Positions 677 to 34,659 of a DNA stretch of 35,143 bases are shown one piece after another. Each line of letters opens with the position of its first letter. Position 1 is the first letter of the stretch. The notes under the pieces are model-generated. The model was not told the origin of the DNA and ran no database searches. It was given only the letters and a program-made list of their open reading frames with translations. Made by a program: the position numbers and the translations under genes. The stretch is from Seison nebaliae (Eukaryota), in the NCBI GenBank assembly GCA_023231475.1, contig JALJEE010000053.1:1-35143 (forward strand), given 5' to 3'.

Positions 677-1601
677 CTATTTCGTGAAGTTCTCATATAA
701 GTGAGTTTTCACTCCATAGTAATGAGTGCCAGCACCAATTATGACGAACAAGTGCCAGATGGCATGAGCGAACGGTATATAACCGTCAAGTTTGAAGAAG
801 ATGATACCGACAAGATAAGCCAATCCGCCAAATGACAATTCGAAAAGACCGGTGGTATAATTGATATGACTCTGAGAATGGAATGGAGTGAATGTTTATG
901 GAATTTGAGAGAGATAATATAAAACCAAATTAATTATTGAAATTGATGGTAATAATCCCACGAAAATGTAGAGGACAGTTTCCAACCATTTATATCTGTC
1001 GAATGGTTTATATAAAATTGAATTTAATTTTTGAATTTTCTAATGAATTTTAACTTTTCGTGAAAAATATATTGATAGGTGGTACCAGATATGGCACCGA
1101 ACCAGATGATGATGACAACACTTATATTGAAAGAGGAAGAGGTATCATTGGTCAACGTTAACCATGGAGTATAAGAGGCGGCAATGAAGATGTAGATCAT
1201 TGTACGATCTAAGTAATGGAAACATTGCTTAAATGGACAATATGTAGAACTTGAAAAAGATGGATTATGATTTTAATTCCGTCGAAAAAATCATTTCAAA
1301 CTTGGCGTTTAATGAGAATAGGTGGAATATGGACGATATGCAAAAGAGAGATATGAGAGCACTTCCATAAATAAGAGTATTGATCCAATGTAAACGAGTC
1401 GTTCCCAATTGGAAGAGTTGTATGATCTCACAAATAACGAAAGGAATAACAATCTAGGAAATTAAATGGAATTAAATTCTACACATTCTCATTATCAATT
1501 CCAACGGAATGCGTCAACAAATTAGCCCAATGTTCGTAGATGGTGGGGACATATGCTGTCATATTCGTTCCAGGTATATTTTTCCAACGTCTCCCGCACA
1601 T
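677..1601 (-). CDS. MMD: Monocyte-to-macrophage differentiation factor (PAQR/HlyIII family 7TM protein), 5 exons, about 235 aa; absent from the ORF track
   Basis: Exons 1601-1506, 1453-1302, 1249-1055, 995-926, 871-677 (708 nt) joined by GT-AG introns of 52, 52, 59 and 54 nt. Motifs [46 protein letters not shown] and [19 protein letters not shown] match the MMD/PAQR family. Confidence 0.93.
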
Positions 1602-2024: not shown

Positions 2025-4214
2025 TTATTGTTCGATACATCGCCACAATTTCCTTTTGATATTGAGAATGAATTCATGACAAGAAAGATCACGGACATAT
2101 TGACTAAATGAAAAATGATGATGGAAATAGAAATGAGATAAACTAACAGATAATTCAATTGTTTATTCTTCTTATACTCATATTTCTGGAATAGTGCGCG
2201 AATGGCTATCAACTCATGATAATATTCCATTCCTTCGCACACATCCGTCCATAATTTCTCCATTATCTCATGGAATTTATCCGTCCTCTCATTGAAATAG
2301 AATAGTTGAAGTAGGAATTCATAAGTCATACCGAACACCATATCTTTATTCGCTTCTTCACATGTATCCTGAATAAACTGGTGAGAGAGAATGATAAATG
2401 AAAAATTAGAGGAGATGAAATTGTGGAAATTAACCTGCATCATTTTAATGGCATCTTCGTCATTTTTAATGAATTTGTGAAACATTTCTCGTAATGTGAC
2501 TGGATCGACGGGTAACTCTTTATATTCCACCTGTCATCACCATCATCATCACAAGTTAAAAATGGAAAAATAAAGAATTAGTAAACTTGGCTCGTTTCGT
2601 GATAAGGAGATTTCATACCGAGACCATGAAATATGTTATTCGATACGACATCTTTACGTCGGTATTCGAAGAAACGTTTGGCAGATGGAAGTCGAAATGT
2701 TGTCGTACCATCATCATTCGCGTCAAGAAACTAAGAAATGGAATGAAATTTGGATCAAAATGAAAGAGAAACATTTGTCATATATTTCTCCTTCTGAACA
2801 AATTCCATTAATTTTTTCTGGAAATAAATCGAATCGTTGTTAGTCAATTCGGGCAATTTTATCTTTTCCTGTTTCATTATTTTTCCCATTTGTCCGTCCA
2901 ATTCACGATCATATAAATACCAACTACAAATTAAACATTTAATATATTTTGGAAATTAATCGAATTAACATAAATGCACGAAAATGATCATTTGCCACAT
3001 AATTGAATTGTTCATCACAATTCCGTTTCTTTTCCACAATAATCGGTTCTTCCGATGGAGTATCACTGAAAACGATGAAAATATGAATGAATATCAATAT
3101 GAATAATAAATAGTACCGAAAACAAGCGAAGCTTCCCATATTGGTGAGGGGAATATTTTTATTATCTTTTCCCAGACAATCTTTCCCATAAATCATCGTC
3201 GTTTGTACATTGGGATCATCGAATGGTAATCGACAGAAATTGAATAAATGGAATTCATTCACAGCCAAAAAAACGAGTTCTTTTGCTTTCTGCATTTCTC
3301 GATCAATGAATTCCATCAACGCAAACGGTCCCACCAACATTATATCTAAATCGATCAGCGCAACTAAATTGAGGAGAATCACTTGAAATTCCATTTGAAT
3401 AATTAACGTAACGTGTCGGTTTCTTTGGTCGAAGGAATTTACAAAACTTATAAAATTTAACCATTTCCCAAGGAACATTCACATGACCATGAAAACCGTA
3501 TAAGAGAATGATATTCTCTTCCAACGACGTTCCCATCGGAATGACTTGTCTGTTGGCCACACCAGAATTCTCATACTCCGTACTGACTTTATGCCAGAAA
3601 CGTTTCCTTTTCCCTTTGGCATGACAAATATCCCATTCTTCTTCTGGAACATCGTTCAGATTGATCTTCTTCCTCCTCCTTGACGTCTTTTGCGACGGTT
3701 TCATTACCGTTTTCTTCGATTTATTTTCAATTTGATTTTTCTTCGATTTTCTCTCCACCACTTTTTTCGCTGGCGTTTTCTTTACAGTTTTCACCGATTT
3801 TGAATTGCTTTTCACAACTTTTTTCTTTAGACGTTTCGATGCTCGTTCTGATGGCAATCGATCTTTAGCCGTTCCATTATTCTTTCGAATAATTTCTATG
3901 ATACTTTTCGGTTCCATCGAACCGGTTTGGATACGAGTTCGAGAAGAAACACTAGTAATGGTTTTTGTGGAGTTAGTTGACGGGTTAGTTTCCTCCACAT
4001 TTTCTACTTTAATTTTCTTTATCATTTCATTCGGTGTATCAGTAACGATGGGAATAGTATGGTGATTATGATCATTTTCACAACAACTTTCCTCTTTAGG
4101 TACCTTTACTATATTGTCACCATCAGGATGAGGCATTAATTTCAAACGATAATCTTCTGGAAGGAGATTGGGATCGATGAAATCGTCCGGATATTTAAAC
4201 TCTTCCTCCACCAT
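2025..4214 (-). CDS. Uncharacterised protein, 8 exons, about 614 aa; Lys-rich region then a possible divergent PWWP-like domain and a helical C-terminus
   Basis: Introns 3364-3412, 3066-3116, 2924-2969, 2731-2772, 2531-2586, 2378-2434 and 2104-2147 (all GT-AG, 42-57 nt) give one open 1845-nt CDS. This joins track ORFs 3303..4223, 2939..3478 and 1826..2530. Confidence 0.75.
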
Positions 4215-4461
4215 AACTCTCACAACACACGGAAATAGAGAGAGAGAAGAATAAGAGAAGAGAAGAAATATTTCTAATCGGAAAGGAAAAAATGAAATGA
4301 AATTGCAATTGAAATAATCCTACGTCGTTCTTTATATGTCGAGAAAGGAGTAATGTTGTTTGTACAGAAAAAAGAAACGCGCAAAAAATAAAAATTAAAA
4401 GCAATTTTTTGAATTATTATTTCTCTTGTAAGATACATAGGTGAAAGCGTGTAACGAATAA

Positions 4462-4522: not shown

Positions 4523-6114
4523 TCAATATTTGAACTTGAATGGAAATGGGATTTCAGTCTGATTTTCATTTGTTAATATTAAATTTTTTTTCCGAAACAT
4601 CAATTGGTAAATTTGTTGGAGACGAATGACTGAGAGGACGGAGAGTTTAGTCAGAATGAAATCGAACGATTGAGAGAATCGGTCACGGAACATTTGAGCC
4701 ATCTCGTCGATGAGTTGGGAGCGAAAATCCAATTCTGATTTTTGTCCCATCAATCGCTTCACATGTTCGACATCGGTACGATGGAAAGATTGAATGAAAA
4801 TGAATAAAACAATCATATCGAATAGACATAATTGTCCATCATTGATCTTCGTTATCCGATACGATTTGAGATGAGACGAACAATCGGACAGTATTTTCTC
4901 GTATTGTTCTCGAAACTCCTTTTGACAATTTCTGATGATTGGAGAGAAATCGTCATCGAATCGATTGATTCTCGTCCCATGAGACAATTGATCGATATGT
5001 TGAATTAAAGGAATGTCATCCATTTGATAACGAAGGAAAATGAATGAAATGTAAACGATCTGCTCCAACTGATCACAGAACATGAAAGTAAAAAAATTTA
5101 ATTCTTCCTCGTCCAATTTCTGTTTCTTTTCGATCTTTTTCGGATTTCTTATCAATAGTCTCGTGAATTTAGTTTCTCCCACAATTCGTCTATCCGTCAA
5201 TTTGAGGAAAGAAATATAATTGTCTAATCTCATCACGTAAATACTGTCGGTTGTATCTCGTGCACTTTTCATCGCCAGTGCACAACTTCGAATAAGATGG
5301 AACATTTTTCCAATTAGTTCTCTCACTTCCACTCTCAATCTCTTCCAACTGGTCCGATATTGGAAATGTTCCGACTCACAACCGGTCGAAGTGGCGATGG
5401 ATAATTGTCGTTTAAATAAATCGAATAACGTCATTCGACTGGTAAATGGATCGGTGTTTGATCCACTTAAATTATCATCTACATTCGATCCTTCGAACAA
5501 TTTTCTTTCTCTTATTTCACCTTCTAAATTATTCTCTTCATTCTCCATCGTCTTCTCCACATTTATCCCATAAAAATCGTCGTGAGTTGTCGATGAACGA
5601 TTTGAACTGATATTACTATTAGTCGTTGAATCGATGGATTTATTATCATTATCATTATCATCATCATCATCTTCTTCTTCTTCTTCTTCTTCTTCATCAT
5701 CTTCATCATCCTTATCATCGTCATGATCTTCTATTGTGATAACTTCATTATCATTCACAGTCGTCGAACTGACTATCATTTGAGATTCATCCTTTCTCAT
5801 TTCATCTTCCAATTCCGATTCAGTTCTCGTCGAATCATTTTCTTGAAGATCCGATTCATTTTCCATTTTGAATTTTTTCCATCGTTTCCGCCACGAACGT
5901 TTATCGCCGACAGATAATTTCCTTTTTTTCCGTCGTCTTTTCACCTTCTTATCCACCAGACCTTACTCCCTCAATGATAAATGAGAATTGGGAGAATTGG
6001 AAATGAACTTGCTGTTAATATTTCGTGTTCGTTCTTCTCGTTCAACCAGTCGTCACACGAAGACGGTCCCACACGAAGTTTCCGTTTCAGTTTCTCCAAA
6101 AACAATTTTCGCAT
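4523..6114 (-). CDS. Uncharacterised protein with a basic NLS-like segment, a long Asp/Glu tract and a helical C-terminal domain
   Basis: Open frame 5956-4523. A 47-nt GT-AG intron (5962-6008) would join it in frame to an ATG at 6114 (514 aa). An internal start at MENESD is the alternative, so the 5' end is uncertain. Confidence 0.7.
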
Positions 6115-7065
6115 CGTCCATTGTTGAAATCGATAAATGACACTCTTTACAAGAGTGTGAGTGAAATGGGAAGAATGAAACTAAACTGCACTTTGTGATA
6201 ATTGATCAGTTATGTCATCGATCGATGGATCATGTGTCAACTCGCAAAAAACGATCATATAATTTAGCAACTAAACGGAAATTGGGGAGAATATGTAAAT
6301 GGAGAATGGTTAAACCCAATCACATGTCAATTGAGACAAATGCTCTCCAATCAACGTTATACAATGATCATCTTCCGGATTTCGATTATTTAAAAGAATT
6401 GCAAAACTTTTAATGAAAAAAAAAACGAATAAATTGCGAGGAAGAAAAGGAAATGTGCAACCGATTACGAATTAGAGTACTCTTCAACTCTTTCACCAAT
6501 GTCTCCATATGTCGAACGTTCAGAAAAACATCAACGCTAAACATTTTAAATTATCAGCAAACTCATTCTCTCATCAAATTCCCATTAGAACATAAGGGAA
6601 CTAATCGAATTATTTCAAAATGGCCAACAATTCCTTCAATCTCATCTTTTCCAATAATCACAAAAATTACTCACATTTTATCTCACCTTTTCACTTCCCT
6701 TATCCTTATTCGCCATTTCTCTAAAACTTACAATGATAATTAGAATATGAAATAAATTATAGAATATAATTTTCGATTTGTATCGAAATTACGTCAATTC
6801 AAAGTCAATAAACATTCGATAATTGTAATGCACTCACAAATGAGAATGAATGTGGAAAAAACTAATAAACGTGCATCATTTTAAGACATGATTGAGAATG
6901 TGAATTAAGAGTTGTTTGAAAAAAAATTTTACTCAAAAACTTTTTTTTTCGATATTCCAAAACTTTCAATTGTGAGCTGTCCTTTGAGGAATGGCGTGAT
7001 AAATTTTAAGTGAAATATTTAAAGATAAAAAGAAATTTAGAAATTTAGAAAATTCGTTTTTTAGA

Positions 7066-7710
7066 ATGACTGATAATAAGAAGGAAATTATTCTCTATAG
7101 TTATTGGAGGAGTTCGGCCTCGTGGCGAGTTCGTTTAGCATTGGCCCTGAAGAATATTCCTTACGAATATCGTTCCGTACATCTAGTGAAGGATGGAGGA
7201 GAGCAACATGGAGAGGAATATAAATCATTAAATCCGATGGAACAAGTACCAACGATGATTATCGACGATATGACGTTGACTCAATCGTTGGCGATCATTG
7301 ATTATTTAGAAGAGACGAGAGATGGTCCGTCGTTATATCCAAAGAATAAAAAGGATCGAGCACTGACGATGATGATAAGTGAAATCATCAATTCCGGTAC
7401 ACAACCATTACAGAATTTGACGATTCTCAAAACGATGGATGAAAAGAAAAGGAAAGTGTGGGCGAAGGATGTGATCGGGAAAGGATTATATTCTTGTGAA
7501 GAAATCATGAAGAAATGTTCGGGAAAGTTTTCCGTCGGAAATCAATTCTCTCTCGCTGATTGTTGTCTCATTCCGCAAGTGTATAATGCGTTACGTTTCG
7601 ATGTAGACATGAACCGATTTCCAACCATCACAAAAGTGATGAGTCAATTGAAGTCTCTACCAATTTATGCGATTGCTTCTCCAGATAGTCAGTCCGATGC
7701 TCCGAACTAA
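7066..7710 (+). CDS. GSTZ1: Glutathione S-transferase zeta / maleylacetoacetate isomerase, intronless, 214 aa
   Basis: LYSYWRSSASWRVRLALALK (zeta SSA/SSC motif), LNPMEQVP, TQSLAIIDYLEE, SGTQPLQNL, LADCCLIPQVYNA. Confidence 0.96.
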   Translation: MTDNKKEIILYSYWRSSASWRVRLALALKNIPYEYRSVHLVKDGGEQHGEEYKSLNPMEQVPTMIIDDMTLTQSLAIIDYLEETRDGPSLYPKNKKDRALTMMISEIINSGTQPLQNLTILKTMDEKKRKVWAKDVIGKGLYSCEEIMKKCSGKFSVGNQFSLADCCLIPQVYNALRFDVDMNRFPTITKVMSQLKSLPIYAIASPDSQSDAPN

Positions 7711-8681: not shown

Positions 8682-9636
8682 TTATTCGATGGCATCGCCT
8701 CCTTTTTCCGCAATGAAATTGATTCGTTGTCGGACTAATCGTTGACATTCCTGACAAATGTCCTGACATGAAGTATGTTGTGTACAATGGAGAGTAGAGG
8801 TATCGGTAGCGTCGAAATCTTCGTCTGTCATTTCTGAACCGATACCGGGCAATTGTCGAATTAAACGAAATTTCTCACAAGCAATTCTCAATTTGCGACG
8901 AATCGATTCCAATACCGCCTCCAAATGACGAGAACGAGCTAGTAAGAAGGAATTTTTCGTTCCATTATCCAACTCGTTATATCGTTGATGAGTAAGTAAG
9001 GTAGATGTGTTGATCGAATGTTTCATATGTTCACAACAACGACGAATAACGTCAGGAAAATTATAGTTTTGTCCAATTAATAAGTTGTTGATACTTCCAC
9101 GTTGAGTCATGAGAAATTGACGACATCGTTTCGTCAACTCACTCATCTGATACTCGTCAGATAACTGCAATAATAGAGTGACGTTCTCATCTTGGAATGT
9201 TGGAGGGAAGAAGAAAAAGATGAATAGAATTTAATAATAATTAGAAATGACACAATTTCTCGTCCAACCAAATGAGGAATAAATTAAAGTGAAACAAACA
9301 GGAAATCATTGAAAACAAAATCAAATTCACAATATTCGTTCTCATACCTGAAATCTCTTTATTTGGTGGATAAATAACTTGTAGTAATTCGGAAACGTCA
9401 GAGAACCGTTTCTCCGAAATCGTCACTACATTCGACGATTTCTCCAGGAAATCGGCTTCGAACATTCGCTGAAAAACTGGCGACCACAACGACAAAATGG
9501 ATCGATGACAATGTAATTGTTTCCCCTCCACCACCAACTGTACATCAGTGAACGGTAATTGCTCATCAAAATTAATCAACTGTTTCTTCACCTCATTATT
9601 CGCGTCGGATGAAACGGTTTTCGAATTATTACTCAT
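8682..9636 (-). CDS. BTB/POZ domain protein (invertebrate BTB-MATH/bath-like type), 2 exons
   Basis: FTDVQLVVEGKQLHCHRSILSLWSPVFQRMFEADFLE BTB motif. Intron 9191-9347 (GTATGA...AAG, 157 nt) restores IYPPNKEISDENVTLLLQLSDEYQM. Confidence 0.9.
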
Positions 9637-9943
9637 TCTTTCTCAACAACAACAACAACGGAAAAAAAGTTGATTCTTTGAATACTCTACAATGATTTTC
9701 TGGATATTACGGAAATTATATGGAATAAACATCAGTCATCATTCCCTCGTTCTTTCACTTCATATGTTGTATGAGGAAAATGATTTGAATTATTTATCCT
9801 CTTGAACTTTAAGCATCAAACTTTTAACAAAATTTTATGTATGAAAAATTTTGGGCAAACGACTAACAATGTAAGCTTAAATATTTGTTACGTGGATGAA
9901 TATGATATTGAAATTGATTTTATAGTTTCTTCTTTAATTTTTC

Positions 9944-21087: not shown

Positions 21088-22188
21088 TTATGTTGATTGA
21101 ATGTGATGAGATATATGAGATTGTTCTGCGATAGGTGAAATGTTTTTCGAAAGTAGAACAGTTTCTCGAAATTGAGTAGATGCCAAAAGATAATAAAAGA
21201 ATCGAATTGAATGAAGAATAATAAAGAATGGTCGTAAGATGGATAGAATGATGATATCGTTCGCTTTCGATTGATTGATGGAGAAAGCGAATAAATAAAT
21301 ATCGACAGGTAAAGCGAATAGAAGGAAGTTAAAACTCATTACAAGAAGAATAATGGAAATTTTTCGAATAAATTTCGATTTTTTTTCACATTGAATATTA
21401 TTGATAGAATTTGAGTTGTTGTCTTGTGTAACTTTATTGAGTGAGGATAGATAGACAGTAATAATGATTGATGTAACAACCATGAAGGAACTAGGTCCGA
21501 GAGAATAAAGAATTGTATGAAGAAGAGAATGGACATTAAAAAAATATTTTCTCCATCCATCATTAGTGAATTGACAAAGTTGTGGATTTGAAGAAAATTG
21601 ATAAACGAAATGTAAAGGAATAACGCTGATTAAAGAGATGATGGCTAAAGTGATACAAATCACATGAGTATAGAATGAGCCTTTGAATCTTCCATGATTG
21701 AATGAGCGAAGAATATTGAGAGCACAACTGGATGATTTGTGGAATAATCTTTTAGCACAATTCGTTTCATTCTCCAGTGATTGTCGACAATTATGAAGTA
21801 ATTTACTTTGATGTGCACTAGTAATGACTAGACATTGATGAAGACAACTTGTACATAAGATGAAGGAACTCCATTGTAGGGCGAAATAGCGAAATGTTCG
21901 TTTAGTTTGACATAGAAATTCATTTCCGCTACTAATGTCAACGTCGAGAATTGATGCTAACGTAAAATTGATACCACAACCAAAAAGAACGAGTAAATCG
22001 GCGAGACTTAGCCAAGCGAAATAAATAAATGTTGGAGATCGAAATCGTTTCTTGTAAATGTTGAGAAGGAATATAACGATAGAAATGGCATTTAACGGTA
22101 TGCCAATTAGAACTATAATTCCGATGATATAATTATAAGATATTCTTTCGATTTGACGTGCAAATTGGATATGGGAAACCATCGTCAT
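21088..22188 (-). CDS. Rhodopsin-family (class A) GPCR, FMRFamide-receptor-like/invertebrate peptide or chemoreceptor type, intronless, 366 aa
   Basis: Seven hydrophobic segments. TM1 GIPLN, TM2 FAWLSLADLLVL, Cys at top of TM3 (FLCQ), TM6 FLLFALP, TM7/H8 RFFYYLLASTQFR. Confidence 0.9.
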   Translation of the reverse strand: MTMVSHIQFARQIERISYNYIIGIIVLIGIPLNAISIVIFLLNIYKKRFRSPTFIYFAWLSLADLLVLFGCGINFTLASILDVDISSGNEFLCQTKRTFRYFALQWSSFILCTSCLHQCLVITSAHQSKLLHNCRQSLENETNCAKRLFHKSSSCALNILRSFNHGRFKGSFYTHVICITLAIISLISVIPLHFVYQFSSNPQLCQFTNDGWRKYFFNVHSLLHTILYSLGPSSFMVVTSIIITVYLSSLNKVTQDNNSNSINNIQCEKKSKFIRKISIILLVMSFNFLLFALPVDIYLFAFSINQSKANDIIILSILRPFFIILHSIRFFYYLLASTQFRETVLLSKNISPIAEQSHISHHIQST

Positions 22189-22817
22189 GGCTAGGAATGT
22201 GAAGAAATAATATTTTTAATTTTTCATAAACAATACGGGATGAATTAGATAAATCAAATTAGCAAGTCAATGTGAAGGAAATTAGAGTGTTTTTGTCAGA
22301 AAATTTACATCTGGAAATTTCTGTAGGATTTGTAAGAAATTCGAATTATGTGGAATGAAGAAGGATTTCTTCTCTCCTTACATCCATTCGATTTGTCAAG
22401 AGATTCATGATCAATTCATTTCATTCGAATGAACGAAAGATTAATAATTAATTGAAGTGGAAGAATGGGATGATGAATTTGAATAATTCGATGAAGGAAT
22501 TCGTTTTCTAAATGAAATTTTTATTTGAATTGAAATTGATGAATAAACTGAAGAGGAGAAAGAAAGTTGTATGAACGTAATGAAATTAATTAAAACTTTC
22601 AATCATAGTCGTAAAATTAGTATTTGCATAAGAAGAGGAAGAATAAATAAGAAAATATAATGAAATAGGAAAGGAATGTTGCATGATTAATAAAAAAGAT
22701 TGAGATGGGATGATTCACAAATGATCTTTGCACAAGATTAAAGAAATGAAATTGTGAAGGGACAAACAGATAGATCATTACCAGGGAATTTATATTTTAT
22801 TAGGAATATATCGGAAA

Positions 22818-25800
22818 TTAAATAATCTTCCCATTCTTTATCGGAGTAAAAAGTTTCGTTCGTAAATTGTTTTTCACTTCGTTGAACGTACGAGATAAAG
22901 GAGTCGTATTTGGACCAATTCGATTATTTGAATTTCTTACCGAATTATTCATTCCTAATAATTCTCGCGTATCATCCTCCTCATTAATCAGATGTTGTTT
23001 GTCCTCTTCGAAATCGTTGGATGATGATAATAATTGAATTTCTTCATTTCGATTCAACGAGAAACTACGACCGATTTTCGATAATCGATTATTCGACGTA
23101 TCAACTTGATCCATAAATTTTCCTTTTGCATTCGAATGACGTTTTCGTTTCTTCTCCTTCTTATTCAGGAATGAATGATGAATATCACCAGGATCTGTTT
23201 CCATATCGGTGGCAGGATCAAATAAATTATTTCGATTTCCTTCACAATTATTATTTGAATTATTCACATTATAACTATTTCGATTTTTAATAATGCGAAG
23301 AAGAAGACCTTCATTATTATCGTTGTCATGATAATGACCGTTCTTTCTTTTCATTTTATCGAACTGATATCTCTCCTTCTTCATATTGGAACGAATAAGT
23401 AATCGACGAAGACATCGTTGTAAACGACGAAGACAACAACGTGAGACGAAAATGAAGAATAAAAGAAATGAGAATAAAATGAAGAAAAAAGATGATAATG
23501 CCACATAAAAAATACTCCAATCACAATTCTCTTCATATAAAATATTTCTTCTCAACCATGATGACATCCAATAAGTGCCACAAATACAAACATGTGTCAA
23601 CGGTTCACAATAACCGTGATTGGAGCATTGATTCGAACAAGTTGATGATCGGATATCGAATAATAATAAAGACTTCCTCGTTTTATCATTAGTTCGATTC
23701 ATAAAGAAATTCATTTCATTATAATCCATTGTACGGAAAGTATCGATCAAACGTTGTTCCACTATATCACTTTTCATTTGACGCCATTTTCTTCTGACTG
23801 ATTTCGAACTTTTCAAACGTTCCCACACAATTAATCGAACTTGAATGAGACAACCGTGTAATGAACAAACTCCACGACGTTGAGTCAACGAATTCAATTT
23901 GAGACTATGTTGATCATCTTCTGGTGAGAGATCATGAAGATCTCCTTTGATTCGACGATCCACTACCATCGTCTCATTCAACAAAATATCAATCTCATCA
24001 TGATGATCAATTTTTCGTTGTGTTTCATTCAACTTCCCATAATGATAATGAAGAGCGACTGATCCACTCATTTGTAACGAATTGTCATTATATGGAATGG
24101 GCGAATTATAAGAGTACCAAGGCCAAGCCCAATTTTGAGATTTAAATAAACCTAATTGACTTGGAGCTAATACTCGCTTCCGTCCTAACATGTCCAATTT
24201 GAGTAGTTGACGATAAATAATATCTTTAATTTGAAATCGATAATATTTCTTCTCATTATCCGATTTGGTTTGATCGAGTAATTTTTTTAATCGTCGAACT
24301 AATGCCAATAATTCTCCATATGTCATCAGATCTCTTTCTTCCGATTTACTCCATAGAAGTAATTCTAATTCATTCTTCATTTCAACCATCTTATCAATTT
24401 CAACTAAACATTCATCACTCGCTGATAAATCGTCGGAATCGGTTACCGTTAAACGGAAACGATATGATCCTGATGGAATCATTTTCAGATTAACATAAGC
24501 GAGTGAATCATTCTGATTTTGGATTATTGGGAAAACTGAAGAATCATGAACATTCTCCCAATAATACTCTTTCGATGTCAACGATTCGTCAGATGTTAAT
24601 TCACCGTCCAAAAATAGGACGGTATCGTCCGTATTATTAATTTTTGTTAATTTCTCCAATTTCATTTTCGTTTGTTTCGATTCTTTCAATAATCGAAGAG
24701 ATGTATAACATCGAACTTCTACTTCTGGTGCGTAATTTTTCGCTTTGATAAGACTGAGATGTAATTTCGATGAGAGAATAATCGGTGATGATAATTCTGA
24801 TGATGAATCGATTTTATTCGAATCTTCATCAATTGACAAACTGTCAATATAACTTTTATGATCAACATTACTCAACGAATCGATAGAAAAGATAATTTCA
24901 AATTCATATTCCCCAACATACAACGAAGAGATGTTTGTGATAAATGAAGTCGGTCGATCGATAACGGCGATCGATCCATATAATTGTTTCCATTCAACTG
25001 ACGATGTAATTTCAATGAGTGACGGAGCTGATAATTTCTCCGCATCAACTGACACACTCAAACCATTGAAATTTCTATAGACGGGAATTGTTGTATTAGT
25101 TTGAATGGAAATATCATTTGAATTTTCCACTTCAATTGTTTGATAGAAAATTTGTGTTTTGTTCATCATCGAATGATCAAGTGAATGCCAAATGACTGTA
25201 AGATTACTATTGGGATAAATGACAGGTCTCGTCTTCTTCCACCAATGAGGATTCTCTCGAGGTGAAACGATACGTAATTCATATGTCTGTGTATCGATTT
25301 GATCGGCACCATCAGTGACGGTTAAATTAACGGAGAATTTTCCTGGTTGTAAATTCTTCAATTTCAAAATTGAAGTATGACTTCCTTCGATATCGATACT
25401 ATGTGAATCATCTTTCGAATTCAGTTTCCAATCATATCTCACAATGGCTTTATCGTCAGTCGAGGAATTTCCATAAAGGAAAACCGTTTCTTTCGGTAAT
25501 TGAACGATCATTGGACCTGTTATAACAGCGACCGGTTTCAAATCTTTCTCTTTGAAAACTTCGAATTGGACGCGACTTGAATTAGTGTAACCGATTTTAT
25601 TAGTAACGGATAATTCGAAGATATATGATCCTTGAATCATTTGATCGATTTCGATGAATTTTGAAGAGAAATCTTTCGATTTGATTTGTTTCACCATATT
25701 CTCATGATCTTTCAAATTGGGCACATCAGTCAATTTGAGAAATTTCCATTTATATGCCGTAATTCCAAAATCACATTTACTTCCTGACGCATCTAAAACG

Positions 25801-27164
25801 AGTTTAGCTGGGGCGAATAATTCTTTTGTTGACAATTGAATGATAGGTAAAGGGAGAACTTTCGATCGATTATAAATTAATAAAGTCACTCCAGTTTCTA
25901 ATATAATATTATTAGTTGGTGAATGCCATTTTAATTGAAATTTTTCTTCTCCTTCTTTATTGGGAGTACTAATTTTGAGATGGAGAAGATTGGTAATATT
26001 TATTTTGATGTTACTCGTTTGATTGAGAATAGAGAGTGTAAAATGTCGAAGATTCATTTCATCAACATCCAAATTCCTCTTATATAAATGATGGAAAATG
26101 GTGAAACTGATAAGTTTCGTATCATTCTTTGCCATATGTCTCTCTTGTTCTGAACTCACCATAAATATTTGATTGGATTCAATCGAGAAGAATTTCAAGA
26201 GATTTTCATCCTCAATACAATACGATTCATTTTTCGATGGCGTTCTCATATAAGTCAATCCCATTTGACATCCACAATATCCAGTTTTCGTCATATCATT
26301 AGCGAAGATACATCGATGAAAATCATAATGACAATTTGTATCATATTTCACGTTATTTTTATTCTTCACATTATTATTGTTGATGGCATCATTTTCTGGT
26401 GAATCGATGGCATTCTCTTGGAGAATGGAACAAATCATCGTTTGTGGTTGATATTGACAAATGTGATCAGATTGAAATTGTTTCCGAAATCGTTTCAATT
26501 CCTCAACATTTTCCAATTGAAGGAGATTTGATAATGGGGAATTAGTGGGAAGAAATTCTTCTTCGAATGTCAATAAATCTGGTAAATAATATTTTTTACA
26601 GATACACATATTTAACGATTTCTTACCATCATGAAATGGTTCACATTGTTCATTGGGACGTTTCGAACAAGTTCCATTACATTCACTTTCTTTCACTTCC
26701 AATAATTTTTTCAATCGATCAACATTTGTCGAGTGATGAATAAATGATGTTCGATCAAACGCCATCACTTTTTCTACACTTCGAATTACAATTAAATAAT
26801 TCTTTCCTTCATTTATCTCATCAACATGTTTCACGAGATTCTCTTTTCCATTTTTCGCCGAACACGATCCATCACTAATACAATTGATGAATGTACATCG
26901 ATTCTTCTTCCCGTTCCATTTGATGGTTTGACACGTGTCTTCCGATCCACAACATTCATTCAAACATTGACTTAACGTATAATTTTTTTTCGTTATCTTC
27001 TCTCCACTTTCCTCCCATTTCGTTTCACCATTTTCATAGAATTTTGGGATACAACCTTTCTCTATTTCAACTTTATTGATGACGAGAGAATGAATAAATA
27101 CGATGTTGACCAGAGCGACCAAAAATGGGACGGCCACAGCTACTTTGGTAGATGAACGACTCAT
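22818..27164 (-). CDS. KIAA0319L: KIAA0319-like / AAV-receptor family type I membrane protein, single 1448-aa ORF
   Basis: Signal peptide, Cys-rich MANEC-like region (CLNECC...C...W...C...C), PKD repeats (IVQLPKETVFLYGNSSTDDKAIVRYDW; GSYRFRLTVTD), EGF-like CSNHGYCEPLTHVCICGTYWM...ENCDWSIFYV, TM helix and cytoplasmic tail. Confidence 0.9.
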   Translation of the reverse strand: MSRSSTKVAVAVPFLVALVNIVFIHSLVINKVEIEKGCIPKFYENGETKWEESGEKITKKNYTLSQCLNECCGSEDTCQTIKWNGKKNRCTFINCISDGSCSAKNGKENLVKHVDEINEGKNYLIVIRSVEKVMAFDRTSFIHHSTNVDRLKKLLEVKESECNGTCSKRPNEQCEPFHDGKKSLNMCICKKYYLPDLLTFEEEFLPTNSPLSNLLQLENVEELKRFRKQFQSDHICQYQPQTMICSILQENAIDSPENDAINNNNVKNKNNVKYDTNCHYDFHRCIFANDMTKTGYCGCQMGLTYMRTPSKNESYCIEDENLLKFFSIESNQIFMVSSEQERHMAKNDTKLISFTIFHHLYKRNLDVDEMNLRHFTLSILNQTSNIKINITNLLHLKISTPNKEGEEKFQLKWHSPTNNIILETGVTLLIYNRSKVLPLPIIQLSTKELFAPAKLVLDASGSKCDFGITAYKWKFLKLTDVPNLKDHENMVKQIKSKDFSSKFIEIDQMIQGSYIFELSVTNKIGYTNSSRVQFEVFKEKDLKPVAVITGPMIVQLPKETVFLYGNSSTDDKAIVRYDWKLNSKDDSHSIDIEGSHTSILKLKNLQPGKFSVNLTVTDGADQIDTQTYELRIVSPRENPHWWKKTRPVIYPNSNLTVIWHSLDHSMMNKTQIFYQTIEVENSNDISIQTNTTIPVYRNFNGLSVSVDAEKLSAPSLIEITSSVEWKQLYGSIAVIDRPTSFITNISSLYVGEYEFEIIFSIDSLSNVDHKSYIDSLSIDEDSNKIDSSSELSSPIILSSKLHLSLIKAKNYAPEVEVRCYTSLRLLKESKQTKMKLEKLTKINNTDDTVLFLDGELTSDESLTSKEYYWENVHDSSVFPIIQNQNDSLAYVNLKMIPSGSYRFRLTVTDSDDLSASDECLVEIDKMVEMKNELELLLWSKSEERDLMTYGELLALVRRLKKLLDQTKSDNEKKYYRFQIKDIIYRQLLKLDMLGRKRVLAPSQLGLFKSQNWAWPWYSYNSPIPYNDNSLQMSGSVALHYHYGKLNETQRKIDHHDEIDILLNETMVVDRRIKGDLHDLSPEDDQHSLKLNSLTQRRGVCSLHGCLIQVRLIVWERLKSSKSVRRKWRQMKSDIVEQRLIDTFRTMDYNEMNFFMNRTNDKTRKSLLLFDIRSSTCSNQCSNHGYCEPLTHVCICGTYWMSSWLRRNILYEENCDWSIFYVALSSFFFILFSFLLFFIFVSRCCLRRLQRCLRRLLIRSNMKKERYQFDKMKRKNGHYHDNDNNEGLLLRIIKNRNSYNVNNSNNNCEGNRNNLFDPATDMETDPGDIHHSFLNKKEKKRKRHSNAKGKFMDQVDTSNNRLSKIGRSFSLNRNEEIQLLSSSNDFEEDKQHLINEEDDTRELLGMNNSVRNSNNRIGPNTTPLSRTFNEVKNNLRTKLFTPIKNGKII

Positions 27165-27634
27165 AATTGAGAAGGTTGGAAAAGATGTTTTTGGTTGAAT
27201 TGGAAAATATTCTTTTTGATTCTATTTTTCATTCATTTATTTTATTACTCATATACATGTATATGGATGGATGAATTAATTGAGAAAGAAATTTCCACAG
27301 TTGTTGTGTTTTTTCTTTATTTTTTTTATTCACTTCACCTTCCCTCAGATTGGGACGTATGTGGAGATGTTTGTGAATGAAAAATTCATAAAATTTATCA
27401 CTGCACGTAGCACAAACTTCTTTGATATGTTTAACAATTCTCCATTAACATTGGTCCTTCACTTCTCCAAATTTCTTCTTTTTCTTTTTTTCTCAATTTC
27501 TCATCAATTTCCTTTCCCATTAAATATATGGCTATTCTCAATTTATTTCTCACTAAATTCTTCTCACAATTATCAATTAAATTTCAAAAATTTATTTTAT
27601 AACAAATCAAGAAAGAATTAGAGGATAAATCAGA

Positions 27635-28603
27635 ATGAATTCAGTACAGAAACATGAACGATATCGTATTATGCAAAATACAAGTGCTTGTACGAATCAT
27701 GTCCAACATGTTCGTAGTTTGTTGGGCGAGAAGTTTTTGGAGCGAGCGAAAATCATTTCTCAAACTCTCGTTGAAGTGAACGAATCGAAAAATCCGAAAA
27801 AAATCGCCTTATTAACAGATCTGTTAAGTGATTTGAAAAAGACGATTGTCCGTACAGATTTAAGTGGATTGATCGGAATGTGTGATACACTTTTCAAACG
27901 TGATCCATTCGATCAATCTTATGCGAATCTTTTCCATTTCTCTTGTTCGAAGAATGATGTTGTTGATCATGAGAAGACGATGTCACTCTTATGGCAAAGT
28001 GAGATATTGGCGGGGAGGAATAAACCGAAAAAATATTACAATAATTTCTATAATAATTATCCGACATTTGATGCGAATGGAGAACGAAGTAATTTTCAAC
28101 ATTTCGGAATGAAAAATAGAAAAATTGAATTAGATCGATTGGAGTCGATGAATTTACCACCGAATCTTGTTCGAATGGATTTCTTGAAAGATTGTTCCAA
28201 AGAGAATTATATCCTTCAATTTAATATTTGCGATTTGATTGTCATTAATTTCCATGTGAATAAAATGGTCATTTATCAGACGACTGTCGATCCCATTTTA
28301 ACAAAAGAACAAGCTCGAATGAGAAATCATGTCAATCAACCACCAACTCAATCATTCTTTAATGATTCAGTCAATCATCATTCATCTAGTCAACGTTTAG
28401 AAATGATTCTACATGGAGCACTTCGTAATACGGCTGATCCAAATGAATATATCATGAACGTCATTACATATTGTAACAGAAATTTGAGAAGTATTCAAGT
28501 CTGTCCCAAATGTGGTCAATTAGTGAATAAAGGAGAAGTGATAGAAGCACATCGTTTTAACGATATCCCAAATTGCCACGAAGGATGTCGACATTTATTA
28601 TAA
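27635..28603 (+). CDS. MED27: Mediator of RNA polymerase II transcription subunit 27 (divergent), intronless, 322 aa
   Basis: Length, helical N-terminus and C-terminal zinc motif CPKCGQLV...HEGCR match the MED27 CxxCG...HxxCR end. Confidence 0.7.
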   Translation: MNSVQKHERYRIMQNTSACTNHVQHVRSLLGEKFLERAKIISQTLVEVNESKNPKKIALLTDLLSDLKKTIVRTDLSGLIGMCDTLFKRDPFDQSYANLFHFSCSKNDVVDHEKTMSLLWQSEILAGRNKPKKYYNNFYNNYPTFDANGERSNFQHFGMKNRKIELDRLESMNLPPNLVRMDFLKDCSKENYILQFNICDLIVINFHVNKMVIYQTTVDPILTKEQARMRNHVNQPPTQSFFNDSVNHHSSSQRLEMILHGALRNTADPNEYIMNVITYCNRNLRSIQVCPKCGQLVNKGEVIEAHRFNDIPNCHEGCRHLL

Positions 28604-28791: not shown

Positions 28792-31700
28792 TTAAACAAC
28801 GGCTCTAGTTTTCAATAATTTATTTCGGAATAATTTCTTCCGAATTCCAAAAATAAAAATTTCGGCGAGTACGATACAAATACCGATACCCAGACCAACA
28901 ACCACCATCATGAACACTTCTGCCATATTTCTGATTCCCAGAGTGGCAGCACTCGCTTCCGATACGCCAGATTGTCGTCGAGGACAAGTGGCTTCAATTT
29001 GATTATTATTTTGAGTTTTCTTCTTTAACTGTCTCATTTTTAGCCAGTCGATATGAGAAATGACATATTTGGCATAACTTTGAATTATTTGATTTTTTTC
29101 TGATGTGAAATTTTCTGATGAGAATGAATTGGTTGATGTATGATCAAATATATTCGATCCACCAAATAAATTCCATGCGAAAAGAATGATATTTTGAATG
29201 GTGGAGAGACTATCAACATTTTTCTCTTGGATTTCCAGTTTGTTTTTATAGAAATAATTCTTTTTCTTTTCATCTTCATCATCCTCATTATCATTACTAT
29301 GGATTGGTTCATGTTGTAAGAGAATCCATTTATTATCCAAATCTTCGATGAATCCTTCTTCGTGAACGATCAAAATTTGTTTTGAAATAATCGACGCCCA
29401 GAGACTACCTTTCTTTACTCCGAAGCCCAAACTACTCCGACCAAACAAGTCACCGACTGTTACTAATTCACACGATTTAGCCGCTTCATATTCCAATCGA
29501 CTTGAATGCCAAATAAATGCTTTCAATTGTCTTTTAAATTTTAAGTAGAAACATTTTAAAAATTCTTTAAAAATTCGGAATTTTCAAATAAAAATGAACC
29601 CACTCAACACGTCTTTTATGGCGTTTTTCGGATTATTATAATTATATTTCGACATCAGTCGACACATTGTCGACAATTCAACTTGTTGTTTGAAATATTT
29701 GTCAACTGATGAATCTTTGATTGTTGCAATTCGGAATTCATCTTGTGGATTTCTCAACTGAAAAAAATGGAAATGAAATTGATGAATGAAAAGAGAAAGA
29801 AATGACGAAGGAAAGTTTCGGCGATGACGAGAAAAAGTTAAAACAATTGAATGAAATTAAGAATAATGAATGATTGAAATTATAAAATTCTTCATTTGGT
29901 TTCATCGAAAACATAAGGACAATATATTAGTTTGAAACTGTGATAAGCTTTCATCAAAAATTATAAGATTTATTCAAAAAGAATTCATCCACAAGAATTA
30001 TTCATGTTCTCTTCAGGAATACCATCACGAAGAGAATAATGTACAAAACGTAATCGAGAAAATACCCATGATGATAGTAGCACTAACAGAACATTTCTCC
30101 CAATGAGATAAACATTCAGTTAATTTCCCATAATTTGATTATTCTCAACTTCTTGAAAGTTGGAGAAAACAATAATGTGAAGGTGAGAGAAGTGGACGGT
30201 TATCGTTACGCAGATGTACAAGATGGAAGGAGATAATAAGAAATAATAGAAATCATAATAGCAAAAGAAAATGAGATTATTCGATACCTTTTGCCCGTGG
30301 ATGATTAATGTCTAATTTGAAAAGAAGATGGACAATTGTTGGAAAGAAAAAGAAAATGTTTAAATGTTTCTAAAGAAGAACTAATATTTTATCACTACTC
30401 TTCATCATTCCAAGCTAAATTACTGGAAACTTATTGAGAATTTCCTTTCTACAACTTATACAATTCTCTCTCATTCAAAAATCATTTCACGAGGTTCTTT
30501 TTAGAAGACTATCCAATATCATACTAACTCGCACGTCATCTATGCCAGAAATGGACGCTTCAGGTTGATCTAACACTAAGAACGCGGCCAAGTTAGCAGT
30601 GTAAGAAGAGACGACAATCATTGAGAATCCAGCCCAAACTATCCCCAAAATACGTCCAGAAAACGACGTTGGTCTCACTAGAGAAATAATCGAAAATTTT
30701 TTTAAATTTAAAGTTTAACAATCGCCAATTCCACTGCCGAGTAAGACGCCCCAAGTGAACCAATGTGAGTTGAGGAATGAGACATCGTTGGAAGAATCTT
30801 CATGATATTTTCGAACAAATTCATGATCCACTTTATTTTGAACCGTTTTCTCATCCATCATCAACATACTTCCTTCATTCTTTAACTTATCGATCAATTC
30901 CTTCAAATTCTCTAATGACGGTTCTTTTTTCATGAAACTTTTTTTCCGTAATTTTTTCGAAATTGTCGGTGAGAATCGATCTAATAAATATAAAGTGGCT
31001 GCTATCACTTCAACACTCAACAACACAACGAGCCATAATCGATATTGGAAAGGTTGGAGGAATGACGTTAAACTCGAATCTTTTTCTTTCTAACAATTTG
31101 TTTAAATAAATATAAATTGTCTTTATAGAAAAAGGAAAATAAATTAGAGAAGAAAGAAGAACTTTCTTCATCAACAATATCATTCCATGATATTTGAATG
31201 GTTTAGTAAAATCGATGACAGCTGATCTTTCGGCATTGATGGGTAATGGTGCGATAATCAGATCGGCTTGTTTCGAAAGAACTTCACCGACCATTCCTAT
31301 TTAAATATCTCGTAAAAGTTGAAAAGAAAGAGAATGAAAACCATTCCAGGATTTAGTGGTGAGATTATAATCACCATAATTATTATCAGCAACCAGATGT
31401 AATTCGAAAGAGAAATTTAATTTACTCTCTAATCGATAGAGGAGATCGATACAATAACCGAAACAACAATAATCGACAATTCCATTAGTGGTTAATTGTG
31501 GACAATAAGCTTCCCGAATATAGTTCGATTTATTTCTTCTACAATTTTTTCCTTTTCTTTTAAAAATGAAAGGAATCTCGTCAATCGTCACAATTAATAG
31601 ATGTGAATCGACTTTCACCCCTTTCGGCAATGCATATGAGCCACCCGGCCACATCAATTTCTCATGTTGGAATAATGTCAATCGACTTCCATACGACATT

Positions 31701-33332
31701 TTCATTGTCTCCTATTCGAAATTATTGATCAAAATCAAATTGATAGCTCACCAAAAAAACATTAAGAAATATTCAAAAATGATAAATACCGAAACAAATG
31801 ACAAATTCAAAAACAAATAATTAACTAACAAGAATAATCATAAGTTGTAAGTTCTATATAAATGAGAAGACAAACATCCACAAAGACAAGAAGAAGCACG
31901 ATTTTTGAGGAAGCGCATTTAAAGTTACCTCGACATTACTCTAGAAAAGGTTGGGCATACAAGTAAGGGAGGTGAAAAGGAAGGGAAGGGAATGAAAAGA
32001 AAGAGAATGAGAAAATGAACGAGAATTTTGAATCCATGCACTGCCTTATACTCTCCCACCACATTCAGCACATTGTGTTTCATATTCAACAATTGATATT
32101 TGAACAAATTAGTGGGAGTATAAACGAGATTTTTTAAATTCCTTCAAACAACAAAATTCGAATGAGAATTCTAATAGAAATGAACTTGATCAAATTTTTT
32201 CCCGTGGTAAATTTGATGAATGTTCCCGCGCTACATTCGTCCACAGGAAAATTTTCCTTTCTCAATGGTCGTTTCAATTGAGTGATGGCAACTTCGATAT
32301 ATGTCTGGAAATTTCACGATTTTTTATCATGGTTTTTTCGTGAATAAATGAGAGAACTTTATAAACGAAATTTAAGACACTGATTAAATCGACATTATTG
32401 AATGGTTTCGATTTCCATAAATCGAACGGTCGAAGAAATGGTTCGTCGATTATGGTTCGAAAACCGATAGTTCCATCAGGTGGAATGGATGGATGTTGAG
32501 CATTTAGAGCTTCTTCGTTGACGATCCAAAGGAAACCGATTTCAAATAAACCCATTTCTTTCGCTGATTTGAAAATATATCCAGCATCATGTTGACTAAT
32601 ATTGAAGATGAATGAAAATAATTTGAAGAGAAAGTGAAGAAGAAACTTCGCATAAAATAAAATGACTCGAGGTTCATATTCATTCAAATATTTCAAATCA
32701 TCTTTATATGATTTCTTTCCACTCTCATAAATGAGAACATGTTCGATACGATAATCAAAAACGTCAATGAGAGTTCTCAAATAATCTAAATGTAATTGAC
32801 CTTCGCCATCCGAACTGGTGAGGAAGACAAGACGACGATATTGAACTCGTTCAATTAAGGCTAGCCATGCCTCCGTCACATGTGCGAACGATGGTACAAG
32901 ATGGATAGTTGCAGGAAATAAATTATAATTATGCAACATTGTCGTACGAGTATTAAAATCGATGAGTGGAATATCATAATTAGTAGCGAGATAATAAAAT
33001 GCCGTTTTTATTAAAACATTCACTTCTCGAATGAAGACGTCATTAGATGTGGCGTCAATGAAAAGGAAAGATCGACGTATTTTTTGTTGTTGACAGAGAT
33101 CGTGAATTAATTGGAATGCATGATTATCTCGATAATCATCGATGAGATAGAAAGTTGCATTGAATTTCAAATTTTCCAAAATTCTCTTTATTTCCGTTCG
33201 TTGAACGACATCACTGAGAATGGTGATATGTTCGAATGAATTGCCATTTTCTAACAATTTTATCCGATTGTTCGATGAGACATTTATTATGGAATTGAAG
33301 AGAAGAAAAAGAAAAATTTGAAGAACTCTCAT
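28792..33332 (-). CDS. GRIN1: NMDA receptor GluN1-like subunit, 11 exons, about 1031 aa, atypical at key residues
   Basis: Introns 32596-32646, 32305-32357, 32142-32185, 31941-32020, 31712-31928, 31297-31341, 31090-31162, 30678-30719, 29758-30528 and 29531-29599 give an open 3096-nt CDS. Motifs [59 protein letters not shown] and [13 protein letters not shown] are GluN1-type. Confidence 0.95.
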
Positions 33333-33425: not shown

Positions 33426-34142
33426 TTAATCTTTTCTCAAATCCATTTTCTCTTGTTTCATTCCATCTTTCGTTATGATATTGATCAATAAAGAATCACC
33501 AGTATGAATATCTCGTTCTGTGGCGGAAACAAATACGTCTTTAATTAGAGCAAGTCCTTTCTCAATGCTAATTGGTTTCTTCTCCTCACCAATCTGATTC
33601 TTCATTCCGATCTGATTATCCAATAACGGTTGCAATAATGAAGAGGATGAACCGGCAGCACGATATTCTTCTCGTTCATATGAACCAACTGGATCATAAC
33701 TATAAATCGCTCCTTTTCCATCTTTATCAATTCCTGCTAAAATATTATAAGTGTAATATGGGAAGAATCGTCGAGAATAGAGCATTGTGGAGAGCATGGC
33801 AGCTGTCGCATGAACTTTCATCGGATGATGATGTAAAGATTCATAAATTTGATGACGTGCTTCCAATTGTTTCGTTAATGCCAATACATCACCATGGAAA
33901 CCGACACATCCTAATAATGTCTCTTTCGTCATCTTGTAAACATGAGGACAATTTCTATTATGTATCGAATAATATTCACTCAATCTCGTATCACTCGCTA
34001 TCAGTGCGAAATCATCACCAGCTATTCCTAATACCGTCCCACCATGGAACGAATATGGAGACCAATAATGATGTTGGTTAATACGATCCAATGCAACTAA
34101 ATCAGAAGATTGTTCGTTTTTTCGTTCGAGAAAATCCAACAT
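33426..34142 (-). CDS. PSMB1: Proteasome subunit beta type-1 (beta6), intronless
   Basis: [68 protein letters not shown]-terminal LRKD. First ATG at 34142. Confidence 0.97.
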
Positions 34143-34659
34143 TTTCAAATAGGCAAATTATTAATAAAATTTCGGGTTAAGCTTTCTTCTAGTTGTTGTT
34201 GGGAAAAATTTGAATTTTAATGTCTTTTTTTCTCAATAATTTTTATATATGAAAATTCTCTATTATCCATCCGCCAATCCAACTAATAGTAAGAGGAATA
34301 ATTCTTGAGAAATTATCAGTTGAAATAATGTTATTAATAATAAACGAAATTACTGTTATTCTAATTAGTTTTTTTCTTCTAACTTCTCAAGAAACTCATT
34401 TTGTATATATTATGCGCATGTTAAGTGATTATCTTATTAATAAATATGGAACGAGCAAAGCGAAAAATTCGTTTTAACTCGGAGACAAAGATGCAATAGT
34501 TAGTTTTATTATTCTTTCAGAAATAATTTCAAACTTGTTCAGAATAATAATTTTATTAATCAAAACAAATTAATTGGATTGTTGTTCAAAGTTTTTAATA
34601 TAATTAATTTTCCCAATATTATTATTATTTATTATTAATAAAATTCCCGCCGGGATAAA

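Follow-up and report, generated by a model that had tools for sequence, protein, structure and literature searches.

The window analyzed in the present study is a 35,143-nucleotide stretch of DNA from Seison nebaliae, a seisonid rotifer. It contains a gene of the GluN1 (NMDA1) class on the minus strand, and the exon carrying the pore codon described below was 100% identical to the NCBI protein SNEBB_009579 of this species. When the protein (P0010) was mapped on the window, its coding exons extended from 33332 to 28795, every intron was GT-AG, and no stops or frameshifts were detected across the 10 exons. Two more isoforms were present, each with one additional micro-exon of 8 amino acids. A six-frame profile search of the window did not reveal a second M2, S1, or S2 exon (best other M2 match, E=0.065).

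28792..33332, minus strand: GluN1 (NMDA1-class) gene; 10 coding exons, P0010 of 1027 aa, SNEBB_009579
31830..31853, minus strand: micro-exon of isoform P0001; 24 nt, flanked by AG/GT
30288..30311, minus strand: micro-exon of isoform P0011; 24 nt, at the M3-S2 boundary, flanked by AG/GT

For this gene, 482 words were sampled, and their share was 1.00 in five sequencing runs from two studies. This share is weak and indirect evidence on any single codon because rounding leaves room for approximately two missing words and the assembly may itself derive from one set of these runs.

Directly upstream lies a proteasome subunit gene (33426-34157, minus strand), the stop of which precedes the GluN1 start codon by approximately 94 nt. 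Pfam matches identified a glutathione S-transferase gene (7003-7710, plus strand), a BTB-domain gene with two ORFs (8682-9642, minus strand), and a haemolysin-III-related membrane protein (677-1453, minus strand). A single ORF of 1467 aa (22818-27221, minus strand) contains PKD domains resembling those of K319L, with a hydrophobic segment toward its end. The long ORFs at 21088-22215 (minus strand), 27629-28603 (plus strand), 4523-5962 (minus strand), and 3303-4319 (minus strand) had no Pfam match at E<=0.001; the first of these has the look of a seven-helix receptor, as judged by eye.

Pfam recognized ANF_receptor, Lig_chan-Glu_bd, and Lig_chan in the Seison protein, which is the full iGluR architecture (ATD-S1-M1-M2-M3-S2-M4). 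Helices M1, M2, M3, and M4 were present in the AlphaFold model (pLDDT 76, pTM 0.65), and all 37 fold matches listed were NMDA-receptor entries, as were the best matches by sequence. In a maximum likelihood tree (IQ-TREE; 33 chosen sequences, 375 columns), Seison was placed within GluN1, apart from GluN2, GluN3, and AKDF, with a UFBoot value of 100. A Seison-Lingula clade appeared in FastTree, was absent from the IQ-TREE tree, and was rejected.

Glycine at the N-site of the pore

Read on the minus strand, 30762-30721 encodes [14 protein letters not shown]. In a phmmer alignment with solved structures, the Gly of Seison was opposite the Asn of GluN1 GVLLNSGIGE, which is residue 616 by numbered GluN1. 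The Gly codon is located 15 nt inside exon 7. In the AlphaFold model of P0010, this Gly is residue 674, just past the M2 helix (661-672), which ends two residues before it.

30736..30738, minus strand: Gly codon GGC at the pore N-site (GluN1 N616), with Ser at N+1; from the translation and structure alignment
30529..30762, minus strand: M2 loop and M3, interrupted near 30720-30677 by a short intron; gate motif SYTANLAAF kept

The replacement of the pore Asn by Gly, as claimed in the original prediction, was confirmed by the translation, the intact gene, and the alignment to GluN1 N616. The argument that AAC to GGC requires two substitutions, making a single-base error unlikely, also held with respect to the two base changes. 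The substitutions in Seison M2-M3 were E621D, G622L (at the junction codon), R625T, A629G, M634I, A640S, and A645S.

We surveyed 343 fetched proteins, from which two Seison isoforms were excluded and five were too poorly covered; 232 GluN1-like proteins and 104 other iGluRs remained. Gly was found at the N-site in none of the 231 other GluN1-like proteins (Asn 219, Ser 3, gap 9); this and the other rarity figures given below are counts of records and not of independent lineages because isoforms and numerous bird and insect entries make the set redundant. The Ser cases were Lingula and two bdelloid paralogues. Long-branch GluN1s besides Seison (0.45-0.76 versus 0.54 in Seison) retained N616 and an acidic residue at 732. 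Therefore, the loss of N616 would not be predicted from a fast rate by itself.

N616 of GluN1 was reported to line an Asn cage and join the water networks of both Mg2+ sites (excerpt of PMC13246513). Rat GluN1 N598G is the same mutant as N616G. Excerpts of two reviews describe a weaker internal Mg2+ block in this mutant (PMC12733198) and a lower potency of Mg2+ with a wider pore of 0.7 nm instead of 0.55 nm (PMC2645549), which supports the reduced Mg2+ block that had been predicted for Seison. The latter review also raises the possibility that Mg2+ permeates double Gly mutants formed with GluN2A, and in the fly, a GluN1 N-site mutant by itself was reported to abolish the Mg2+ block (excerpt of 10.1101/542498). 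By analogy with these mutants, it is well founded to expect a weaker Mg2+ block from the N-site Gly of Seison GluN1. The direction of a change in Ca2+ flux is not given by a wider pore, which need not pass less Ca2+. Blocker tests are an unclean read-out of the N-site Gly because the potency of memantine was reported to be the same in rat GluN1 N598G (PMC2645549, in part).

The N-site of a protostome GluN2-type clade (n=17) was Gly in 13 members, Ser in 2, Gln in 1, and a gap in 1, so that none of the 16 covered had Asn; 2 of the 17 members are named, and tardigrade and millipede proteins are included. If the partner of Seison GluN1 is of this type, the filter would lack any Asn. In this clade, which contains P0188 and P0170, N/N+1 was commonly Gly-Ala (Gly 13/17, Ala 14/17), and the T518 equivalent was often Lys.

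The glycine-binding site and other departures from GluN1

In the available text of PMC12199545, glycine is bound through its amino group by P516, T518, and D732 and through its carboxyl group by R523, S688, and the backbone NH of T518. Two residues that hold the amino group were replaced in Seison GluN1: T518 by Pro and D732 by His.

31241..31243, minus strand: Pro codon CCC at T518; eliminates the hydroxyl and the backbone NH through which this position contacts glycine (contacts from PMC12199545, in part); in 0/231 others
31226..31228, minus strand: Arg codon AGA, R523 retained; binds the ligand carboxylate
31187..31189, minus strand: His codon CAT at Q536, which is coupled to D732 in rat GluN1; 13/231 others also His
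29707..29709, minus strand: Ser codon TCA, S688 retained; from the mapping on the window
29506..29508, minus strand: His codon CAT in place of D732, a residue that binds the amine of glycine and governs gating; in 0/231 others

Position 518 of the other GluN1-like proteins was Thr in 215, Ser in 6, Val in 1, and a gap in 9, while position 732 was Asp in 203, Glu in 5, Gly in 1, and a gap in 22. Glu732 was present in the GluN1-like proteins P0134, P0156, P0208, and P0209; the two named ones are from decapod crustaceans. Four of the six pocket residues (P516, T518, R523, S688, W731, and D732) were retained in Seison, namely, P516, R523, S688, and W731. Q536H was rejected as a novelty of Seison, given the 13 other proteins with His, and His536 co-occurs with a normal Asp732 in other GluN1s.

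The effects of single mutations in rat GluN1 are described in the available parts of two sources. The EC50 of glycine was approximately 640 uM in T518A and rose approximately 35,000-fold in D732A (PMC12199545). D732L and D732F made GluN1 constitutive, such that glutamate alone opened the channel, whereas most D732 substitutions merely reduced potency; Q536H had a 50-fold cost, and a Trichoplax receptor with a natural Tyr at 732 was a constitutive leak channel (10.1101/2023.08.03.551817). Since single 518 and 732 mutants already impair the rat response to glycine, classic glycine gating by Seison GluN1 is unlikely by analogy. Judged from its sequence, the Seison protein is a GluN1 orthologue by descent and not a canonical glycine-binding GluN1.

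D732H and T518P are not mentioned in the available text of either source, and the accessible part of PMC13648236 mentions neither rotifers nor D732. No study joining Seison with a glutamate receptor was found in the literature covered, which did not extend to subscription journals. Among the matches listed, none concerned rotifer or acanthocephalan NMDA receptors by title. We conclude that Seison GluN1 is a real and new variant of GluN1.

Seison also departed from the GluN1 norm elsewhere. It deviated at 30 of 185 near-invariant columns (155 matched the consensus), 19 of these changes being radical; the next highest count among 121 sequences was 19. Five enrichment tests were performed post hoc and none survived correction: the pocket (3/6 columns changed versus 27/179 elsewhere) was marginal at p=0.055, with p=0.015 for radical changes; residues 616-629 gave p=0.04; and M2-M3 as a whole was not enriched (p=0.33). 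Three regions differed in length.

30763..30969, minus strand: enlarged cytoplasmic M1-M2 loop; 69 aa versus 23-36 in five compared GluN1s
28987..29319, minus strand: S2-M4 linker insertion of approximately 100 aa with an open frame; follows the end of S2 and precedes C798
28795..28851, minus strand: short cytoplasmic tail, with 19 aa beyond the post-M4 motif; the six GluN1s used for comparison have 72-130 aa

The disulfide cysteines C744 (29472-29470) and C798 (28986-28984) were retained. In an atlas look-up, all leads for the S2-M4 insert were under 0.9, and none assigned it to a family. Its M2-like look was attributed to chance, as 336 of 1000 shuffles reached an equal or better score. It is unlikely to be a retained intron because, given its composition, a run of 100 codons free of stops would arise with a probability of 1.3e-4. 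The C0 calmodulin-binding region was missing from the tail. PF10562 was below the threshold in Seison, as it also was in Brachionus, the long tail of which has a C0-like stretch.

Predicted function and rival explanations

We tentatively favor an explanation that falls somewhat short of an even chance: Seison GluN1 may act as a scaffold subunit of a GluN1/GluN2 channel that opens on glutamate alone and has little voltage-dependent Mg2+ block. The N-site Gly would remove Asn side chains that help to hold hydrated Mg2+, and the filter would widen. With the usual protostome GluN2 partner (Gly, Ser, or Gln at the N-site), the filter would have zero Asn, and Mg2+ may permeate. Pro518 and His732 would strip away most contacts to the amino group of glycine, such that glycine gating would be lost. 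In the last and weakest step, the ligand domain would rest in a permissive state, as that of rat D732L and D732F does. The substitutions, their rarity, and the intact gene favor this explanation; the sequence also shows the GluN1 identity, the retention of the M3 gate and of both disulfide cysteines, and the loss of the C0 tail. However, R523 and S688 are kept and would be needless in a ligand-free subunit, although R523A was reported to lower surface expression and block trafficking (PMC12199545, in part). Moreover, Seison deviates at more of the near-invariant columns than any other sequence, and the enrichment in the pocket is only marginal. In rat GluN1, D732Y and D732W gave no current (excerpt of 10.1101/2023.08.03.551817), and D732A reduced surface expression by approximately 90% (PMC12199545, in part). 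In mammals, the external Mg2+ block is set mainly by GluN2 (PMC12733198, in part), which also counts against this explanation.

The unusually high number of deviations is what would be expected if the protein were drifting under relaxed selection, with NMDA signaling being lost, or were a non-gating modifier, with a normal GluN1 encoded elsewhere. The two large inserts and the short tail agree with relaxed selection, as does the reported loss of many genes in Seison: in the published assembly, 36.5% of BUSCO genes are missing (PMC8351084, in part). Two bdelloid Asn-to-Ser cases sit in a second paralogue clade, which also counts in favor. However, the 10 exons are free of stops and frameshifts, and the M3 gate, R523, W731, and C744/C798 are kept. 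No second Seison GluN1 was seen among the best 120 of 769 matches, the best 120 of 886 matches (rotifer-weighted profile), or the 23 named members of 150 representatives, and duplicated BUSCO genes make up only 0.3% in the published assembly. Seison GluN1 may be single copy, which would also fit the favored explanation. Among the named rows of the same best 120 of 769 and best 120 of 886 matches, there was also no GluN1 from an acanthocephalan or a second seisonid. We regard relaxed selection or a modulatory copy as rather unlikely.

A re-tuned co-agonist site would account for the distribution of changes in the pocket: the amine-side T518 and D732 and the coupled Q536 are changed, whereas the carboxylate-side R523 and S688, along with P516, W731, and aromatic 484, are kept. 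The site may then bind a small amine-free carboxylate, such as acetate or lactate, or it may be gated by protons or a metal acting on the two His residues, with a weak Mg2+ block as before. Acid-sensing insect IRs retain the same Arg; however, the analogy is loose, as IR75a also retains Asp/Glu (PMC7882480, in part). Only a few residues make up this pattern (post hoc, p=0.015-0.055), and the presence of His536 beside a normal Asp732 in other GluN1s weakens it further. A re-tuned site is unlikely on this balance.

Even less probable is a channel that is still gated by glycine, with only the pore change, the subject of the original prediction, being of consequence. Gating would then occur with a very low affinity under high ambient glycine, and marine invertebrates contain much free glycine. 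R523, S688, and W731 are kept, and Glu405, which is present in most invertebrates, could partly substitute for D732; the 405 column of the 231-protein survey was set aside because an indel shifts its numbering. However, single changes at 518 or 732 were reported to cost hundreds- to ten-thousands-fold in potency, and Pro518 additionally loses the backbone NH. We consider this quite unlikely.

An assembly or consensus error is very improbable: although T518P and D732H are each one base off the consensus codon, the change from Asn to GGC takes two bases, three separate exons are affected with no frameshifts, the 482 sampled words had a share of 1.00 in the five runs from two studies, and neither A-to-I nor C-to-U editing offers a route from GGC, CCC, and CAT to Asn, Thr, and Asp.

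A bolder form of the glutamate-gated explanation is also conceivable, albeit doubtful. In this form, the only GluN1 of Seison would have shed both halves of coincidence detection together with Ca2+/calmodulin feedback. The product would be a natural, Asn-free, and Mg2+-permeable channel, gated by glutamate alone or together with a co-agonist other than an amino acid (a small carboxylate or protons) acting where glycine once bound. NMDA receptors are defined by two properties, the Mg2+ block and the need for glycine, and the residues responsible for both are almost invariant in GluN1. If this form is true, an animal can keep an NMDA receptor yet drop coincidence detection, with N616, T518, D732, and the C0 tail lost together. 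D732H and T518P are two natural substitutions at a site that switches GluN1 between silent, glycine-gated, and constitutive states. This significance extends to one little-studied species.

Comparison with known receptors

Seison GluN1 shares with the GluN1 class (rat GluN1, fly dNR1, and Brachionus and bdelloid GluN1) the domain order, the clade, the M3 gate, R523/S688/W731, C744-C798, and Ser at N+1. In contrast to this class, it alone has N616G, T518P, and D732H (0/231 others), with a longer M1-M2 loop, an S2-M4 insert of approximately 100 aa, and no C0 tail. Natural losses of the N-site Asn also occur in Lingula GluN1 (P0016) and the bdelloid P0079 and P0132, all with Ser, and Lingula adds D732E. 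However, these residues are milder, T518 is kept, and no kinship with Seison is supported. The Ser N-site and Glu732 of Lingula anatina P0016 represent an independent, milder version of the same double change; in this record, the S1 segment is duplicated, which is likely an annotation artefact. The bdelloid rotifers (P0079, P0132, P0064, and P0055) have two GluN1 paralogue clades, and the second, from Adineta ricciae and A. vaga, has a Ser N-site and His536.

Vertebrate GluN3A has Gly at the N-site, as originally claimed, and a low Mg2+ block (PMC12005412, in part). GluN3 is a class of its own (PMC6307864, in part). The claim of convergence with GluN3 was not supported. Seison belongs to the GluN1 clade (UFBoot 100) and has Gly-Ser with His732, whereas in all four GluN3-like sequences with an N-site Gly, this residue is followed by Arg at N+1, and Asp occupies the 732 equivalent in each of the nine GluN3-clade sequences. 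Furthermore, GluN3A is activated by glycine and pairs with an Asn-bearing GluN1. The likeness is weakened further by the protostome GluN2-type clade, in which Gly is usual at the N-site (13/17). Overall, the original prediction was supported on the N616 equivalence and the weaker Mg2+ block, was not supported on GluN3 convergence, and overlooked both Pro518 and His732.

Engineered rat GluN1 N598G carries the identical pore substitution; however, it is a laboratory mutant with an Asn-bearing GluN2A partner and an intact glycine site. Rat GluN1 D732L/F and Trichoplax AKDF19383 (Tyr732) resemble Seison in lacking a carboxylate at 732 and were reported as precedents for ligand-independent activity. 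These residues are hydrophobic, in contrast to His, and AKDF19383 is a homomeric receptor of the AKDF type. The resemblance between Seison and GluN3 is confined to one residue, and the engineered GluN1 mutants are the closer analogues.
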